DNA from: a virus
Taxonomy: Duplodnaviria > Heunggongvirae > Uroviricota > Caudoviricetes
IMG/VR virus record: IMGVR_UViG_2617270949_000004
DNA length: 5,125 nucleotides
Direction: 5' to 3' (one strand)
Below are positions 1 to 5,125 of this stretch, one piece after another. The notes under the pieces are model-generated. The model had not been told where the DNA came from. It made no database searches and saw only the letters and a list, made by a program, of their open reading frames with translations. Position 1 is the stretch's first letter, and each line of letters opens with the position of its first letter. A program made the translations under genes and the position numbers.

Positions 1-2399
1 ACGTATTTTGCCTGGTAACGGGCGTCATCAAGTGCATTATGGCGCTCACCTTCGAATGGAATAGCCGTTCTGGCATCGAAGTCTATGGCTTTCCCCAGCT
101 CAACGATTGTGCGTACATCGCGATCGTTGTAGTAACGCCACGGGCAGGGGATTCCCTGCCGTTCGTATGAACGGCGCAAAATCGTGTTGTCGAAGTTGGC
201 TCCATTTCCCCAGACCTGAACAAAAAATTCACCGGAGTTTTCGTCGATAAATTCCCGCAATTGTAACAGTGCATCATCTAACGGGATTTCATCGGTCATA
301 ATGGCAGATTGCGCTTCGCGTGATTGCTTAAGCCACCATTTAATGGTGTCCCGATCAATGACCCCGCCAGCAGTTTCCAGATCGATAGTCTTACTAAATT
401 CCGGTCCCATATCTCCGGTTTGCGGATCGAAAAATATTGCACCTATTGAGATGATCGGGGCATCAGGATTTTTTCCCATGGTTTCAAGGTCGATCATTAG
501 ATGGTCACACGTCCTGCTGGTGGATGTGATAATGTAATGATCGTTCACCGTAATTAAGGGATCTGCCGTCTCGCCAGTTTCACTATCGCTGGCGTGATCC
601 TGAGCGCTGCCAGCATTCTCCTTGTGTGGATGTTCAGCGCCTTCCATTTCCTTCGGATCATTTTCCTGAACTTCAACCTGATTCTCTTCATCGAATGTTT
701 CCTGGTATGTTGCGTCGCCCATCACCGCGCCACAATCAGGGCAGTTACCGCCGCCGGTCTGACCGCAGGCGGTGCAGACTTTTTCCACTTCCTGTTGCGC
801 CACTGGTTCAGGCTGTTTCGTTTCTGGCTCGTTTTGTTGCGTATTTGGGCTGTTTTGTTCCGCTTTCTGGTCGTTCTGTTCCGATTCTTGCTGGTTCTGG
901 TTTACAGAATCGCGGGTTTCAATCCCCTTTACCCATTTCGGATCATTCGGGTCGCTAATCCCTGCAACAAATTCTCCGCGAGAGGCAGCCAGTAATTTGT
1001 CTGCATCGACAGGATTTTTGGGCGGAATGTTTTTCCGGGCTTCATAGAGTTCTGCCCGCAGTTTCTGATATTTCGCATCAACAGAATTTACCTGTGACTG
1101 AGCATCCAGCGGCTGCGTGTCCTGATGATGTTCAGTTGCATCCGGTTCCACTGTTTCAGCCGTTGCCTGTTCATCTGCCATTGCGCAAGATGGTTGCAGT
1201 TTTTCTTCATCATCCTGTTTTTCTTCTTCTGTTACACGCTGCGGCATCGGGGCAGAGGAACGACCGCAGGCAATATCCACGATTTCTGGATCAGGGTTGG
1301 CATGATCAGTTTCAGTCAGTACTTTGTTAAGATATTCAGTGACGTGTGCGGGGATAACCTCGATCCCAATTGGTGCTTCTTTTACGGACGCAACCACGAT
1401 GGCGCGGGAATAATCCAGCCCGCCAGGCATGGTGATGAATTTGTCGCGGAAAACAGAAAAGGGCGGTTTATTTTCAGCGATAATTTCCTCGACACGTTTA
1501 GCGTGTGCCGGATGAAGGTTATAAATGTCCACGTCCATTGAACGAGCCAGTACGCCAGTGGCTACGTCGCGCGCCAGTGACGTCAGATCGTGAACGAAAC
1601 CTTCGCCGCGATCGGTGAGGTTCCCGCCGCCAGCATTAGCGCCGGAAGCCGTGCGCGTGATGCGTGAAACACGATTTCCTTTCATCCACTCTTTTGTCAG
1701 CAGACCGCGATCGGTGTAGTCTGCGTCCAGGTATGCTTCGAAAAAAGCAGTCATCAGCCCCAGGCTTGAATTGCCTGGATTAGGGAAAACTCTGTCAGTA
1801 TCACGCACCAGTTTGTGGAGATCGCGAATTTCCAGCGGGTCGAGCAGGCTGGTTTTGTGGGAAACAGCCAGGGCAGTAACAGCTGGTAGTTCTTCAGCTC
1901 GTGCAATGTGTAATGCCTGTAGTTCGTTGCGTGAAACGTGCGTTACCGGTTTTTCGCTGCCGTGTTGAGCAAGCCAGCGAATGGGCAGCTCCTGACCGGA
2001 AATCGGGAGTAGCATATTCTCCTCAATCTCCGTCATGTCTTCGCCATTAACATTGGTATTGTCAGTGCTGGCTGGCTTGTCCTGCGCAGAGGATGAGGGC
2101 GCGATAAATACCATTGTGATGCCATCTTCCCCGCCTTTTTCGTAACGGTTGCAGAATTCCGTATCAAATACGCCTTCTGGTGGAAGGTCATCAACAACGG
2201 GCAAATTGACGCGAACAGGTTTTTTAAAGTCATCTTCATCGTAGCCAGCATCGTCAATCGCAACAGCACCACGATAGATGGCAATGGATAATTTTTTCGC
2301 TTCAGCCCAGTAGAAACCGCCTTTAATACCGAGACGTTTTCTTACTTTGTCATTTTTTGCTTCGTAATACAGTGGGTAAACTTGTTTATCGGTGCTCAT
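1..2399 (-). CDS. recE: Exodeoxyribonuclease VIII-like (RecE-family) protein, 3' end beyond the window edge; about 800 codons visible. C-terminal part carries a CxxC-X9-CxxC zinc ribbon and a DnaQ-like DEDDh 3'-5' exonuclease domain
   Basis: Hand translation of the minus strand from ATG at 2399-2397 to position 3 gives a continuous frame with no stop. GAGG lies about 11 nt upstream of the ATG. Translation starts [36 protein letters not shown] and includes [44 protein letters not shown], then a Q/N/E-rich linker, [16 protein letters not shown] (about 730-774), then MIDLETMG (Exo I, about 480-497), VWGNGANFD (Exo II, about 190-215) and ERHNALDDA (Exo III, about 21-44). Sits immediately downstream of racC, as recE does in Rac. 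The ORF track omits it because it is incomplete in the window. The recE name rests on synteny and recalled N-terminal similarity, not on a search. Confidence 0.85.
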
Positions 2400-2469
2400 T
2401 GCTTTTTAACCTCAACTCAGATTAAAATTAATGCGAGTGATGAATAAATGTCCCAGGTTCTTCACTCAG

Positions 2470-2499
2470 GCCTGCACAGTGTGCAGGCTTTCTTTTTTT
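2470..2499 (+). terminator. Putative rho-independent terminator in plus-strand orientation, in the racC-recE intergenic region
   Basis: Perfect inverted repeat GCCTGCACA-G-TGTGCAGGC (2470-2488) followed directly by TTTCTTTTTTT (2489-2499). On the minus strand the same hairpin is preceded by an A-run and not followed by U's, so it works as a terminator only for plus-strand transcripts. Confidence 0.5.
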
Positions 2500-2774
2500 C
2501 AGATTTCACCTTTTAATTTCATTGCAATCAGAGTTGCCAGAAATTCGGCTTTTTTTTCTGCGGGCAGATTCTTTCCTATGTGCACCAGACACATTTTTTT
2601 AACACCATCGTTAAGTGTTTTAACGTTGCCTGTTGAACCGTCGATATCAACCACAGTGAATGGGGTTTCTTTATTTTCTGTTTTAATCACGTAGCCAATA
2701 CGTTTTCCCTCCAGGATAACTTCGAGCACAATGCCATCAGTAGTAACAATGGTGGCTTCATAACTGTTAATCAT
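2499..2774 (-). CDS. racC: RacC-like small prophage protein (91 aa)
   Basis: ORF starting at ATG 2774-2772 with AAGGAG about 7 nt upstream, stop TGA at 2501-2499. Product MINSYEATIVTTDGIVLEVILEGKRIGYVIKTENKETPFTVVDIDGSTGNVKTLNDGVKKMCLVHIGKNLPAEKKAEFLATLIAMKLKGEI. Length and position directly upstream of recE match Rac racC. The longer track ORF (start 2822) lacks an RBS and is not preferred. Confidence 0.8.
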   Translation of the reverse strand: MINSYEATIVTTDGIVLEVILEGKRIGYVIKTENKETPFTVVDIDGSTGNVKTLNDGVKKMCLVHIGKNLPAEKKAEFLATLIAMKLKGEI

Positions 2775-2848
2775 GTTTTTCTCCTTAATTAAGGTTGAGC
2801 GAATCTCTGCCATTGCTGGCATAAATTCAGTTTTGAATAGTCAGTTAA

Positions 2849-3136
2849 TTAAAGTTCGTGTGCCATCTGGTATTTTTCGGCGCATTGCTTACAGCAGTAT
2901 TTATGCTCCTTACGTGCAATAAGGGAACCGTGCATATAAATAATTTCAGCGGTAAAGGCTTTTTCAGGTTCAATTTGTTTATTACAGAGCGTATATGCAC
3001 AGGGAATTAAATCCGGGTCACCCTTTTGCTGGAGGATTTTTCTGATTCTCCACAGCCATTTTTTAATTCCGGTGTGACTGATGGTCTGCCTGGAGGCAGG
3101 CGTAAAACAATAATCAAGCATGGGGTTCATATCCAT
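2849..3136 (-). CDS. Small cysteine-rich zinc-ribbon protein in the ydaE position (YdaE-like); 95 aa, or 93 aa if it starts at the ATG at 3130
   Basis: Complete minus-strand ORF MDMNPMLDYCFTPASRQ...CAYTLCNKQIEPEKAFTAEIIYMHGSLIARKEHKYCCKQCAEKYQMAHEL, with a CxxxxC...CCxxC cysteine pattern. GGAG lies upstream of the start region. There is a 74 bp gap to racC and a 10 nt gap to the upstream Rha gene, consistent with one operon. Positional equivalent of ydaE/kilR in Rac. Confidence 0.6.
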   Translation of the reverse strand: MDMNPMLDYCFTPASRQTISHTGIKKWLWRIRKILQQKGDPDLIPCAYTLCNKQIEPEKAFTAEIIYMHGSLIARKEHKYCCKQCAEKYQMAHEL

Positions 3137-3146
3137 AGCTCCATTT

Positions 3147-3701
3147 TTATTTTAAGGAAAGCAACTGCTCTACGGTCATATTTTTAATTGCGCTCCGGTT
3201 TACAAGAGTCCAGCCTTGTTGCTCCAGATAAAACAGGAAGGTATCCAGGGTGCAGACCATTGCGCCGTCAGGAACGGTTTCAGTGAATTTGATATTGCCG
3301 TGTTCGTCGAGACGGATAACCAGGGTGCGTCCGTCCCCGTGAATCATTTTGTCGGGAGACGGGGCGTTATTCTGGCGCAGTTCAGCTTCCATGCGGTCGA
3401 ACTCAGCAATGTATGCCTCTTTAAATGCAGCGGCTTTTTTGCCAGTGAAGCCCATCACCAGGAAAACGAAGCCGTTTTTGGTGATTTGGTACATTGGGAG
3501 TTTGCGCCCGGTTGAGTCGGTGTATTCGCTCGACACAAAATTGTGCTCAGTGAATTTTGCTGAACAGTCCAGATTGCGAATTTTATCCAACACTCGTTCG
3601 TGGCGTTTGCCAAAGAACTCGGCGATCGCAACAGACGTAGTGACAGCGCGACCATTTTCGATGGTTACGTCAGGGTGAGAAAGGGTAAGGATAGTAGCCA
3701 T
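3147..3701 (-). CDS. Phage regulatory protein of the Rha family (antirepressor-like), about 184 aa
   Basis: Minus-strand ORF with start at ATG 3701-3699, preceded by GGAGG 8 nt upstream; stop at 3149-3147. N-terminus MATILTLSHPDVTIENGRAVTTSVAIAEFFGKRHERVLDKIRNLDCSAKFTEHNFVSSEYTDSTGRKLPMYQITKNGFVFLVMGFTGKKAAAFKEAYIAEFDRME fits the Rha-domain pattern (FGKRHxxVLxxIRNL ... Y.D..GR....Y.IT..GF..LVMGFTG.KA..FK..YI..F). The in-frame upstream extension to 3998 crosses a terminator hairpin and is considered less likely. Confidence 0.7.
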   Translation of the reverse strand: MATILTLSHPDVTIENGRAVTTSVAIAEFFGKRHERVLDKIRNLDCSAKFTEHNFVSSEYTDSTGRKLPMYQITKNGFVFLVMGFTGKKAAAFKEAYIAEFDRMEAELRQNNAPSPDKMIHGDGRTLVIRLDEHGNIKFTETVPDGAMVCTLDTFLFYLEQQGWTLVNRSAIKNMTVEQLLSLK

Positions 3702-3865
3702 GATGGCAGCCTCCGCGATGAATTTGATTAACTCACCACCGAGGTTTTCCACGACCATAAGGGTGGTGAGACGTACAGGGGTGGAAATACCGGTCATCAC
3801 GGAACCCGGCCAGCCTTGCGGCTGCCCTGCACGCCCCACCATAATGCGAATGTGGCTGTGCTTAA

Positions 3866-3898
3866 CGCATAAAAAAACCGCCTGAGCGCGGTTATGCG
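3866..3898 (-). terminator. Putative rho-independent terminator in minus-strand orientation, upstream of the Rha gene
   Basis: Minus-strand RNA would read CGCAUAA-CCGC-GCUCAG-GCGG-UUUUUUU-AUGCG: a GC stem (AACCGC/GCGGUU, loop GCUCAG) followed by a run of 6-7 U. Outer arms CGCATAA/TTATGCG add a larger imperfect palindrome. Confidence 0.5.
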
Positions 3899-4063
3899 CC
3901 GTGAATGATTTCGGGTTTCCACGCCCGGCACCCGTTTTATGAGGTGCAGGTGCACTATAATTCCACCCGTTCTGGTTTTCAATAGCTACATTCAACATTT
4001 TCTCTACCTTTCATCACCGAAGTGAACTTTGTTGATGCGGTGCCTGGTGCCTCCAGGTGATGT

Positions 4064-4084
4064 TAACCAGTTAACAATTAACGC
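4064..4084. repeat. Three closely spaced (G/A)TTAAC repeats (GTTAAC-CA-GTTAAC-AA-TTAAC); candidate protein-binding/operator-like site
   Basis: Direct reading: gttaac at 4064-4069 and 4072-4077 (each self-complementary), then attaac at 4079-4084; preceded by a CCTGG-N5-CCAGG inverted repeat at 4046-4060. No function can be assigned from sequence alone. Confidence 0.25.
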
Positions 4085-4554
4085 CGGATACAGAGAATCC
4101 ACCCATAACACTGTTTTTGGTTTTAACTGTTCCGCGTGCGCTGAGCCGCATTCACCGCATCACAAAATTCACTTTAAAAAGGGCGGCAGAGCAGTCACGG
4201 AGTAAAACTGATACCGCCAAAAGTCACCAGAAAATTGATAACAGAGGGCGTTGCAGCGGAGTTGTTACTTAAGCGTATGGTCAACCTGACAACCCGGTGT
4301 CCTCAACGGGGGAAGGAATACCCCCGCCATACTTACCGCCGCGCCATTTCGCGGAGTGCCACAACCGGAAGCGCACGGTCGAACTAAATTTAACGACACC
4401 GTACAGAGAGACCAATTTCGCCGTGCGCTTTCGCGTTATGCCCTGACTTTTCAGGGACATATCCTTTCAGTAAACTGTCAGTGCCGGATGTTCACCCGTG
4501 TCCGGCGCACGCACTCCACCTGACCCGTGGAGAACTCCTTAATTACCAACCCTC

Positions 4555-4560
4555 AGGAGG
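4555..4560 (+). promoter_or_regulatory. Shine-Dalgarno sequence AGGAGG for the downstream plus-strand ORF
   Basis: AGGAGG ends 5 nt before the ATG at 4566. Confidence 0.55.
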
Positions 4561-4565
4561 GTGAA

Positions 4566-4772
4566 ATGGATAAAAAGCAAATTGAGGCCCTGCAATCTAT
4601 TATTGAAAAACAAGATGAAGCTATCAGGATTCTTTCATATCGCACTGATATGATACTAAATATGCTTTCTGCATTAACGGCTGCGCTTGGTGGTACAAAA
4701 ACAAACGTATACCGCGAAGTTGTTATTCAACAGATAGATAAATTTGAAAAAACCATACCAGGTATTAGGTGA
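4566..4772 (+). CDS. Hypothetical prophage protein (68 aa as it stands), probably 3'-truncated by the IS1 insertion; sits where sieB lies in Rac
   Basis: ATG at 4566 with a strong RBS. Product MDKKQIEALQSIIEKQDEAIRILSYRTDMILNMLSALTAALGGTKTNVYREVVIQQIDKFEKTIPGIR. The last sense codon AGG spans the host/IS1 junction and the TGA stop (4770-4772) lies inside the IS1 left inverted repeat GGTGATG. The upstream GTG at 4527 used by the track is less likely. Confidence 0.55.
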   Translation: MDKKQIEALQSIIEKQDEAIRILSYRTDMILNMLSALTAALGGTKTNVYREVVIQQIDKFEKTIPGIR

Positions 4773-4790
4773 TGCTGCCAACTTACTGAT
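4768..4790 (+). repeat. IS1 left terminal inverted repeat (IRL)
   Basis: GGTGATGCTGCCAACTTACTGAT at the element boundary. The flanking host sequence is ...ACCATACCAGGTATTA; the target-site duplication cannot be confirmed without the right end. Confidence 0.9.
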
Positions 4791-4822
4791 TTAGTGTATG
4801 ATGGTGTTTTTGAGGTGCTCCA

Positions 4823-5098
4823 GTGGCTTCTGTTTCTATCAGCTGTCCCTCCTGTTCAGCTACTGACGGGGTGGTGCGTAACGGCAAAAGCACTGCCGGA
4901 CATCAGCGCTATCTCTGCTCTCACTGCCGTAAAACATGGCAACTGCAGTTCACTTACACCGCTTCTCAACCCGGTACGCACCAGAAAATCATTGATATGG
5001 CCATGAATGGCGTTGGATGCCGGGCAACCGCCCGCATTATGGGCGTTGGCCTCAACACGATTTTCCGCCATTTAAAAAACTCAGGCCGCAGTCGGTAA
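4823..5098 (+). CDS. insA: IS1 InsA (transposition regulator, N-terminal part of the InsAB' transposase), 91 aa
   Basis: GTG start at 4823, stop TAA at 5096-5098. Product [91 protein letters not shown], with a zinc-finger CxxC...CxxC and a helix-turn-helix region. Confidence 0.95.
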
Positions 5099-5125
5099 CC
5101 TCGCGCATACAGCCGGGCAGTGACG
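5017..5125 (+). CDS. insB: IS1 InsB (transposase catalytic part), 5' portion only; continues beyond the window
   Basis: ATG at 5017 in the -1 frame relative to insA, at IS1 position 250. Translation [36 protein letters not shown]... is open to the window end. Confidence 0.85.
5072..5080 (+). promoter_or_regulatory. IS1 programmed -1 ribosomal frameshift site (TTAAAAAAC, A6C motif) producing the InsAB' transposase
   Basis: TTAAAAAAC lies in the insA frame just before its stop, in the insA/insB overlap, as in IS1. Confidence 0.8.

Follow-up and report, generated by a model that had tools for sequence, protein, structure and literature searches.

An early-left prophage exonuclease gene that joins a RecE-like N-terminal region to a DEDDh 3'-5' exonuclease domain

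Gene content and integrity of the reading frame

The window, a 5,125-nt stretch of tailed-phage DNA (IMG/VR record IMGVR_UViG_2617270949_000004), begins inside a minus-strand prophage 'exonuclease' coding sequence (1..2399) whose translation yields the first 799 of 814 codons of a fused protein, hereafter RecE-N::DEDDh. The open reading frame exits the left end of the window, its final 15 codons and stop codon lying beyond the contig edge; the full length of 814 aa is given by the copy in E. coli MLI121, which is 99.9% identical to the window at the DNA level and is annotated as 'exonuclease' in RefSeq (WP_032279702.1). On the same strand, the ATG start codon (2399-2397) follows a Shine-Dalgarno GAGG (2413-2410) after a 10-nt spacer, so that the initiation region read from the sequence spans 2397..2413. 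Directly upstream, in the same operon, lies a gene for a 91-aa homologue of RacC (2499..2774, minus strand; NCBIfam PRK09790) that is 89% identical to the K-12 protein.

The contig is short and both of its ends fall in repeats (IS1 on the right, a multi-copy prophage gene on the left), and deleted remnants of the DEDDh domain are found elsewhere (P0034, P0041, P0060), raising the prospect that the fusion is a frameshift or assembly artefact or a decaying pseudogene. The earlier note had named a frameshift as what might undo its reading. Against this, four complete genomes carry the uninterrupted reading frame at 99.9% identity, the intact frame has a CDS annotation in the complete genomes among the matches listed, and a match covering at least 80% of the query occurs in 1243 genomes. 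A second 814-aa protein (P0273) is 100% identical to the window protein across its N-terminal 616 aa, diverged orthologues retain the two-domain architecture, and the catalytic residues are conserved. We therefore rejected an artefactual or pseudogene origin, which we regard as vanishingly improbable.

RecE-like N-terminal region and linker

Residues 1-616 correspond to the RecE N-terminal region and linker. The RecE-like character that the earlier note had read from the translation is borne out by a Pfam match to Exonuc_VIII (PF06630; aa 53-189, E=2.5e-37) and by a BLASTP alignment of aa 48-616 with residues 40-591 of K-12 RecE at 79% identity. Similarity is closer still to 891-aa RecE variants, which are 94-96% identical over the N-terminal part, carry the PD-(D/E)XK domain PF12684 and have recT as the next gene. 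The full-length AlphaFold2 (AF2) model delineates an N-terminal alpha/beta domain, a variant of RecE-N (aa 1-100; 2100..2399, minus strand; pLDDT 71-92 per block), and, still within the RecE N-terminal region, a helical domain (aa 130-380; 1260..2012, minus strand; pLDDT mostly 70-93 per block). The packing of these domains against one another cannot be read from the model because its overall confidence is low (pTM 0.31). A profile search of PDB sequences with the RecE-N module returned no relative at E<=1, and no relative of known function was detectable for this module. The function of the RecE N-terminal region has been unexplained since RecE was first described (PMC11611040).

The folded N-terminal part is followed by an acidic, Gln/Pro-rich linker of predicted disorder (aa 458-628; 516..1028, minus strand), with pLDDT mostly below 50 in the AF2 model and 35 D+E residues versus 11 K+R. 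This linker is a hot spot for mosaic junctions, with phage matches breaking at approximately window positions 553, 593 and 989. It also contains a cysteine motif, C-x2-C-x7-C-x2-C (aa 542-557; 729..776, minus strand), which had been described as a CxxC-X9-CxxC zinc ribbon. The four cysteines in two CxxC pairs are indeed present, but the pairs are separated by seven residues (GQTGGGN) and not by nine. The motif is shared with canonical RecE, the K-12 protein having CNACGQTGGDNCPDCG at the equivalent position; an abundant RecE (P0323) reads CAAR at the site, and the motif is absent from all diverged RecE-N::DEDDh relatives. The block that contains it has a pLDDT of ~49-52 in AF2, within the predicted-disordered linker. 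As judged from these comparisons, the cysteine motif is neither specific to the DEDDh variant nor part of the swapped module.

The C-terminal DEDDh exonuclease domain

The C-terminal part of the protein matches the DEDDh (DnaQ/RNase T/DexA-like) 3'-5' exonuclease superfamily over aa 633-799 in the window (1..503, minus strand), and to aa 814 in the full protein. The Pfam Rv2179c-like profile (PF16473) aligns to aa 633-799 with E=1.5e-64 and 217.4 bits (gathering cutoff 27); the alignment covers model positions 2-172 of 177, the remainder falling past the contig end. All three of the motifs previously proposed are present on the minus strand, and their five catalytic residues align with those of phage T4 DexA. 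Exo I, MIDLETMG (aa 635-642; 474..497), contributes D637 (489-491) and E639 (483-485), equivalent to DexA D7 and E9; Exo II, VWGNGANFD (aa 729-737; 189..215), contributes D737 (189-191), equivalent to D119; and Exo III, ERHNALDDA (aa 785-793; 21..47), has the H-x4-D spacing with H787 (39-41) and D792 (24-26), equivalent to H186 and D191. The five residues are invariant or nearly so over 40 homologues, with the D637/E639 pair invariant in one alignment (A3) and D737 in another (A2). In a few relatives the Glu of Exo I is replaced by Lys, so catalysis may not be needed in every member of the family.

Structure prediction, which the earlier note had proposed as a check, gave an AF2 domain model with a mean pLDDT of 83, above 90 in most 10-residue core blocks, and an RNase H-like alpha/beta fold of the DnaQ type. 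Foldseek placed T4 DexA first (8KEL, E=2e-11), with RNase T, a DnaQ domain and Orn next in rank; across PDB fold comparisons the best matches were T4 DexA, Cap18 and RNase T, with Orn/REXO2 and ERI1 also strong. The PF16473 score puts the match well beyond what chance could give, and the predicted fold supports it. Placement of the C-terminus in the PD-(D/E)XK family, which would have contradicted the earlier note, also finds no match in the data: Pfam detects PF12684 in an 891-aa RecE (P0285) but not in the window protein, BLASTP similarity ceases past RecE residue 591, and the NCBIfam RecE equivalog NF007259 scores 1171 bits versus a cutoff of 1269, with only model positions 1-603 of 877 matching. 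On this sequence and profile evidence, where canonical RecE has its PD-(D/E)XK domain the window protein instead has a DEDDh exonuclease module, for which the superfamily predicts 3'-5' polarity.

A sharp junction with canonical recE

The two parts of the gene meet at a mosaic junction whose last shared codons, located by BLASTP against K-12 RecE, DNA alignment and blastn against the 891-aa recE, are aa 607-616 (552..581, minus strand). Homology to K-12 RecE ends at ...ETGE(T/V)ADP(L/V)I in BLASTP, and blastn against the 891-aa recE gives 96.8% identity over 1949 nt, stopping at codon 616, near window position 553. The exchange junction is, on these alignments, sharp and located at the nuclease-domain boundary, in agreement with the nuclease-domain swap that had been proposed for this gene. 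Ordinary lambdoid mosaic recombination would account for such an arrangement. The block in common with canonical recE, comprising racC, the RecE-N region and the linker, terminates exactly at the nuclease-domain boundary, where a 'DEDDh - xis - int' left arm takes the place of a 'PD-(D/E)XK - recT - ... - xis - int' arm.

Genomic neighbourhood

The earlier note had suggested extending the contig leftward to see whether recT follows. In the MLI121 copy, xis and int come next instead, and after them the attachment site at ompW, beside which the prophage is integrated. The genes xis and int are likewise next in TW14359, JNEC-KY180 and phage 813R8, and none of these four copies has an adjacent recT, in contrast to the 891-aa recE, after which recT comes. 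With three different neighbouring integrase genes (by ompW, tRNA-Ser/mtfA and potC), xis-int directly follows the fused gene in every case, and no single-strand annealing protein (SSAP) gene was found in the stretches examined around it in these three integrase contexts. In some copies DUF1482/dicB lies upstream in place of racC. A scan for promoters and terminators gave counts at or below those of shuffled sequence and hence says nothing about expression in the lysogen, and a PADLOC scan yielded no match for the exonuclease or its neighbour genes. In prophages of E. coli and Salmonella, this slot is also filled by standalone DEDDh versions of 180-190 aa. Upstream of one standalone DEDDh gene (L008), a 456-aa open reading frame has marginal similarity to RecE-N (E=0.002 over 57 residues).

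Distribution and relationship to known systems

Of 5426 complete E. coli genomes, 4053 contain DNA of the DEDDh module and 1730 the nuclease part of canonical RecE; the DEDDh module is thus the commoner of the two in E. coli. The combination of RecE-N with an Rv2179c-like domain recurs in nine of ten diverged long representatives, and the architecture is not a rare one. Existing database names include 'exonuclease', '3'-5' exonuclease' and '3'-5' exoribonuclease domain-containing protein', and PHROGs 2082 and 20376 cover the family. The family with its two-domain architecture already has entries in Pfam, PHROGs and RefSeq, and the present analysis adds nothing to these databases in that respect. 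A literature search found no study of the RecE-N::DEDDh fusion, nor a functional study of any family member.

The window copy shares its family, architecture and position before xis-int with the RefSeq prophage proteins (WP_032279702.1, WP_000102168.1; PHROGs 2082, 20376) and has no structural difference from them, being merely cut by the contig end. It shares with K-12 Rac RecE (exodeoxyribonuclease VIII) the N-terminal region, linker, cysteine motif, upstream racC and ydaE, and operon position, but the C-terminal PD-(D/E)XK 5'-3' dsDNA exonuclease (PF12684) of the K-12 protein is replaced by the DEDDh domain, and the recT, ralR and rcbA genes of Rac are absent here.

Among solved structures, the closest relative by sequence is T4 DexA (exonuclease A; 8KEL/8KEN; E=1.5e-6, ~27% identity). 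DexA is a standalone protein of 227 aa with extra loops and helices, encoded by a virulent phage, whereas the domain in the window forms the tail of a multidomain protein encoded at the end of the early-left operon of a temperate phage. The founder of PF16473, M. tuberculosis Rv2179c, is likewise standalone, and chromosomal. DexA and its E. coli homologue EcD, also standalone, are 3'-5' DNA exonucleases in vitro (PMC12153337). EcD has the same DEDDh chemistry and a proposed role in phage-bacterium conflict, but it is a different sequence; the primers in its published supplement encode a MIDTET... start and a ...TIPETYD end (PMC12153337), and identity of the window protein with EcD was rejected.

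Discussion

The gene is probably best understood as encoding a modular nuclease, carried in the early-left operon of a lambdoid (Rac/Qin-like) prophage and of mosaic origin, in which a RecE-N module is attached to a DEDDh domain that would act as a DNA exonuclease trimming 3' ends. Its proposed anatomy is a folded RecE N-terminal module of ~380 residues, an acidic disordered linker of ~170 residues and a DEDDh domain of ~180 residues. By the chemistry of the superfamily, D637, E639, D737 and D792 would bind two Mg2+ ions with H787 as the general base, and nucleotides would be cut off singly from a free 3'-OH end. From the relationship to DexA, the most likely substrate is DNA, with activity on RNA also possible, and the position in the operon suggests that the protein would be made after prophage induction. 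With no annealase partner and a predicted polarity opposite to that of RecE, the protein cannot act as a RecET-type 5'-3' resection and annealing recombinase.

The top-scoring Pfam family takes its name from Rv2179c, a reported exoribonuclease said to trim 3' overhangs from dsRNA (PMC10534295, citing Abendroth 2014), so RNA could be the substrate. The fold also matches RNase T, Orn/REXO2 and ERI1 strongly, and the RefSeq name is often '3'-5' exoribonuclease'. A protein acting mainly as an Rv2179c/RNase T-like exoribonuclease, trimming or degrading the 3' ends of phage or host transcripts, sRNAs or tRNA, nevertheless seems unlikely to us, since it is the DNA exonuclease DexA that leads both the sequence comparison with solved structures and the Foldseek ranking, enzymes of the DEDDh group often accept DNA as well as RNA, and the RefSeq names were carried over from the Pfam name and not from experiments.

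Two further readings assign the nuclease to phage-host conflict, and we consider each of them quite improbable. As an anti-phage defence nuclease of the HREX type, the protein would degrade modified DNA (e.g. 5hmC) of superinfecting T-even phages and protect the lysogen. If it behaves like that of Rac recE, the early-left operon should be repressed in the lysogen, and the location of the gene at the end of that operon would accordingly speak against such protection. In favour of a defence role, the gene belongs to prophages and is very common, no solved structure is closer to the domain than DexA, and the DexA homologue EcD is reported to degrade T4 DNA while sparing unmodified dsDNA and to shield cells from T4 (Kang et al. 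2025, PMC12153337). EcD is, however, another homologue, and the residues with reported roles in 5hmC recognition by DexA, W152 and D169 (PMC12153337), are not conserved; the aligned positions in the window protein are Tyr and Ala, respectively. The window protein also keeps DexA D90, a tetramer residue that is lost in EcD, and the negative PADLOC result adds to the evidence against a defence role.

Alternatively, the protein could be a counter-defence or host-takeover factor of lytic growth, destroying 3'-ended immunity nucleic acids such as retron msDNA or scavenging host DNA, with RecE-N providing targeting and RacC as its partner blocking retron toxins. The linked Rac genes racC and recE act as a blocker-trigger pair towards retron-Sen2 and retron-Eco9, with RecE degrading msDNA (bioRxiv 10.1101/2020.06.22.160242), the 89%-identical racC lies directly upstream of the fused gene, and DexA scavenges host DNA in T4 (PMC12153337). 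The msDNA result nonetheless concerns RecE, and the in-vitro digest used a truncated RecE nuclease and not the N-terminal region (bioRxiv 10.1101/2020.06.22.160242). Moreover, degradation of msDNA by RecE triggers the toxin and does not disarm it, nothing in the present data connects the DEDDh domain to retrons or signalling molecules, and racC is not upstream of every copy, some of which have DUF1482/dicB.

Beyond the modular DNA exonuclease that we favour, the occurrence of near-identical RecE-N modules on nucleases of predicted opposite polarity, together with a DEDDh version that lacks an annealase, speaks for an N-terminal region whose working depends neither on RecT nor on the type of nuclease. 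Tentatively, and with more doubt than conviction, the RecE N-terminal region might be a nuclease-agnostic module, for instance for targeting or host-factor binding, paired either with a 5'-3' PD-(D/E)XK nuclease and RecT or with a 3'-5' DEDDh nuclease and no annealase; the DEDDh version would then be a conflict factor (exclusion of phages with modified DNA, or counter-defence, possibly with RacC) and not a recombination enzyme. Were this true, the RecE N-terminus, long a puzzle, would gain its first functional lead. Recent work has tied related DEDDh exonucleases to phage-host conflict (PMC12153337, PMC13344964). The fused gene is among the most widespread E. coli prophage genes, and the protein and its two-domain architecture, already in databases, are present in most E. 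coli genomes.

Domain architecture of the fused exonuclease

The minus-strand gene at window positions 1-2399 starts with an ATG (2399-2397, minus strand), with a GAGG 10 nt upstream, and 799 codons are visible before the reading frame runs past the left window end. A Pfam search with the translation identified the Rv2179c-like 3'-5' exoribonuclease domain (PF16473) at the C-terminus (aa 633-799, E=1.5e-64), accompanied by a weak RNase_T match over the same stretch, and Exonuc_VIII (PF06630) at the N-terminus (aa 53-189, E=2.5e-37). The four motifs quoted in the earlier note were all found at the expected places. AlphaFold2, given 40 homologues, modelled the C-terminal domain with a mean pLDDT of 83, and core 10-residue blocks were mostly above 90. 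The closest solved relative by sequence is the phage T4 exonuclease DexA, whose invariant residues D7, E9, D119, H186 and D191 align with D637, E639, D737, H787 and D792. Profile match, predicted fold and these five catalytic residues uphold the proposed C-terminal DEDDh 3'-5' exonuclease domain.

Two motif variations were observed among homologues. Four of approximately 200 fetched DEDDh homologues (P0002, P0112, P0127 and P0136), distributed among standalone and RecE-N-fused forms, have the Exo I Glu replaced by Lys (M[IV]DLKTMG) and may be catalytically dead. Canonical RecE proteins (P0285 and others) present a C-terminal motif, IMDVKTTA, which is taken to be their PD-(D/E)XK active-site motif and superficially resembles the DEDDh Exo I sequence MIDLETMG; one loose regular expression catches both, a trap for motif-only reading.

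Junction with canonical recE

The RecE-like nature of the N-terminal region was likewise borne out, by the PF06630 match and by 79% BLASTP identity to K-12 RecE (fused protein aa 48-616 versus RecE 40-591), with similarity ending sharply after ETGE(T/V)ADP(L/V)I. The NCBIfam RecE equivalog matches only over model positions 1-603 of 877, with a score below cutoff. Many RecE proteins of 891 aa share 94-96% identity with the N-terminal 616 residues but, unlike the fused protein, continue into the PD-(D/E)XK domain (PF12684) and are followed by recT. At the DNA level, identity to 891-aa-type recE amounts to 96.8% over 1949 nt, upstream spacer included, and stops at codon 616 (near window position 553), close to the published start of the RecE nuclease domain (residues 564-866; PMC11611040). 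Other phage records show homology breaks near window positions 593 and 989, both within the linker. On sequence comparison, the junction is a case of classic lambdoid mosaicism, in which a common block (racC, RecE N-terminal region and linker) continues into either of two left arms. The nuclease-domain swap envisaged in the earlier note holds as regards the abrupt end of homology at codon 616; the reversal of polarity would follow from superfamily membership. The note's observation is confirmed and its interpretation partly supported.

The one factual slip concerned the putative zinc ribbon, which has 7 residues between its two Cys pairs and not the 9 given in the note. In the full-length model this motif falls in a region of 170 residues (aa 458-628), acidic and rich in Gln and Pro, where pLDDT mostly stays under 50. 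It was not found in any diverged relative of the same architecture examined. K-12 RecE carries CNACGQTGGDNCPDCG at the same place, so that the motif falls outside the exchanged module; in an abundant RecE (P0323) it reads CAAR. Judging from these alignments, it is a lineage-specific linker feature and no partner of the DEDDh domain.

Neighbourhood and distribution of the DEDDh module

E. coli MLI121, a complete genome, contains a stretch 99.9% identical to window 1-4767, in which the fused gene is 2445 nt long and encodes an 814 aa protein annotated as 'exonuclease' (WP_032279702.1), followed by excisionase and integrase genes and ompW. The same exonuclease-xis-int order is found in O157:H7 TW14359 (at ompW), in JNEC-KY180 (beside tRNA-Ser/mtfA) and in phage vB_EcoS-813R8 (beside potC). 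Leftward extension revealed no recT, nor any annealase gene in the examined stretches of these four. Standalone DEDDh versions of 180-190 aa, beginning exactly at M(I/V)DLETMG, likewise come last before xis in prophages of E. coli and Salmonella. In a Salmonella enterica prophage locus (L004, 4743-6570), the standalone gene follows immediately after a DndB-like gene (PF14072), with YfdP and DUF2303 genes also upstream and xis-int just after; the DndB association may bear on a DNA-modification-related role.

Among 5426 complete E. coli genomes, 4053 contain module DNA (window 1-545, at least 80% coverage), at 8099 places, and 1730 contain the PD-(D/E)XK part of K-12 recE. Matches covering at least 80% of the whole 2399-nt query were obtained in 1243 genomes and the two-domain architecture recurs in diverged relatives, excluding an artefactual fusion. 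In nine of the ten diverged long representatives (domain identity 55-71%), PF06630 and PF16473 occur together, which indicates an old fusion that has been maintained. A second N-terminal type (MSKVFICAAIPDE..., precomputed Pfam PF27430/PF27432) precedes this linker and the DEDDh domain in P0122, the slot is occupied by three separate ORFs (456, 157 and 183 aa) in locus L008 (737-3127), and P0034, P0041 and P0060 are deletion fusions without Exo I.

The domain family comprises 11,941 clusters at 50% identity (E<=0.001) and is present in 1615 of 50,697 phage records, T4-like dexA genes included. The prophage proteins form a very common family whose annotation already exists in RefSeq, PHROGs (2082, 20376) and Pfam; the remaining value lies in a widespread family of predicted exonucleases and in what it hints about the RecE N-terminal region. 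This region is modelled with moderate to good confidence as an alpha/beta domain spanning aa 4-100 and a helical one spanning aa 130-380. The searches made with it, among them a profile search of PDB sequences, found no relative whose structure or function is known. Near-identical N-termini on nucleases of presumably opposite polarity constitute the one observation here bearing on an open question, and hint that the N-terminal region works independently of nuclease type.

Predicted activity and candidate roles

By analogy with its superfamily, the enzyme would hydrolyse its substrate by a two-metal mechanism, starting at a free 3'-OH end. DNA would be a substrate going by the closest characterised relatives, DexA and its E. 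coli homologue EcD, which are 3'-5' DNA exonucleases (PMC12153337); RNA is also possible, because Rv2179c, founder of PF16473, is reported as an exoribonuclease (PMC10534295, citing Abendroth 2014). The predicted opposite polarity and the lack of RecT rule out RecET-type resection and annealing.

Kinship with DexA raises the idea of an anti-phage defence nuclease that, like DexA-type enzymes (HREX), recognises 5hmC. We consider this improbable: EcD differs in sequence from the fused protein, the two reported 5hmC-recognition residues of DexA are Tyr and Ala here, and PADLOC returned no match for the exonuclease or the genes around it. A counter-defence role tied to RacC, for which the sole hint is that racC and recE have been described as a blocker-trigger pair acting on retrons (bioRxiv 10.1101/2020.06.22.160242), appears equally doubtful, as that work concerns RecE and its in-vitro digest used a truncated RecE nuclease. 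Judging by its distal place in the early-left operon, the gene would be expressed once the prophage is induced; a promoter scan of the window was uninformative on expression, with site counts no higher than in shuffled sequence.

Upstream elements and window ends

Upstream genes in the window comprise a racC homologue (89% identical), a ydaE-family gene and a Rha-family gene. The racC-exonuclease spacer contains a GC-rich hairpin of 10 bp with a T-run after it (2468-2490, plus strand, antisense to the operon), which could be a stop for antisense transcription or a stem-loop in the operon mRNA. Gathering-level Rfam matches on the minus strand correspond to C4 antisense RNA (3759-3846, 81.9 bits), isrK (3871-3947, 67.7 bits) and DicF (4181-4232, 75.8 bits). 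The first two fall within an ORF annotated as 'Rha family' (283 aa, 3147-3998), in its 5' third, which is the part matching Pfam Phage_ASH; the Rha domain spans aa 109-210. This ORF has probably been annotated too long and reaches across a P1 c4/ant-like region of antisense control. Between this gene and DicF lies a DicB remnant (4028-4111, minus strand), annotated as a pseudogene in MLI121, so that the division-inhibition module is partly decayed.

The window is an entire NCBI contig of 5125 bp (P0268). Its right end lies inside IS1 (start at 4769) and its left end inside a gene with up to seven copies per genome, which explains the short-read assembly break at both ends. The IS1 left end (ggtgatgctgccaacttactgat...) spans 4769-5125, to the contig end, with an InsA ORF at 4823-5098. 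The MLI121 locus, 99.9% identical in other respects, lacks this IS1, which here cuts the 3' end of an 81-aa ORF (4527-4772) that encodes 92 aa in MLI121.
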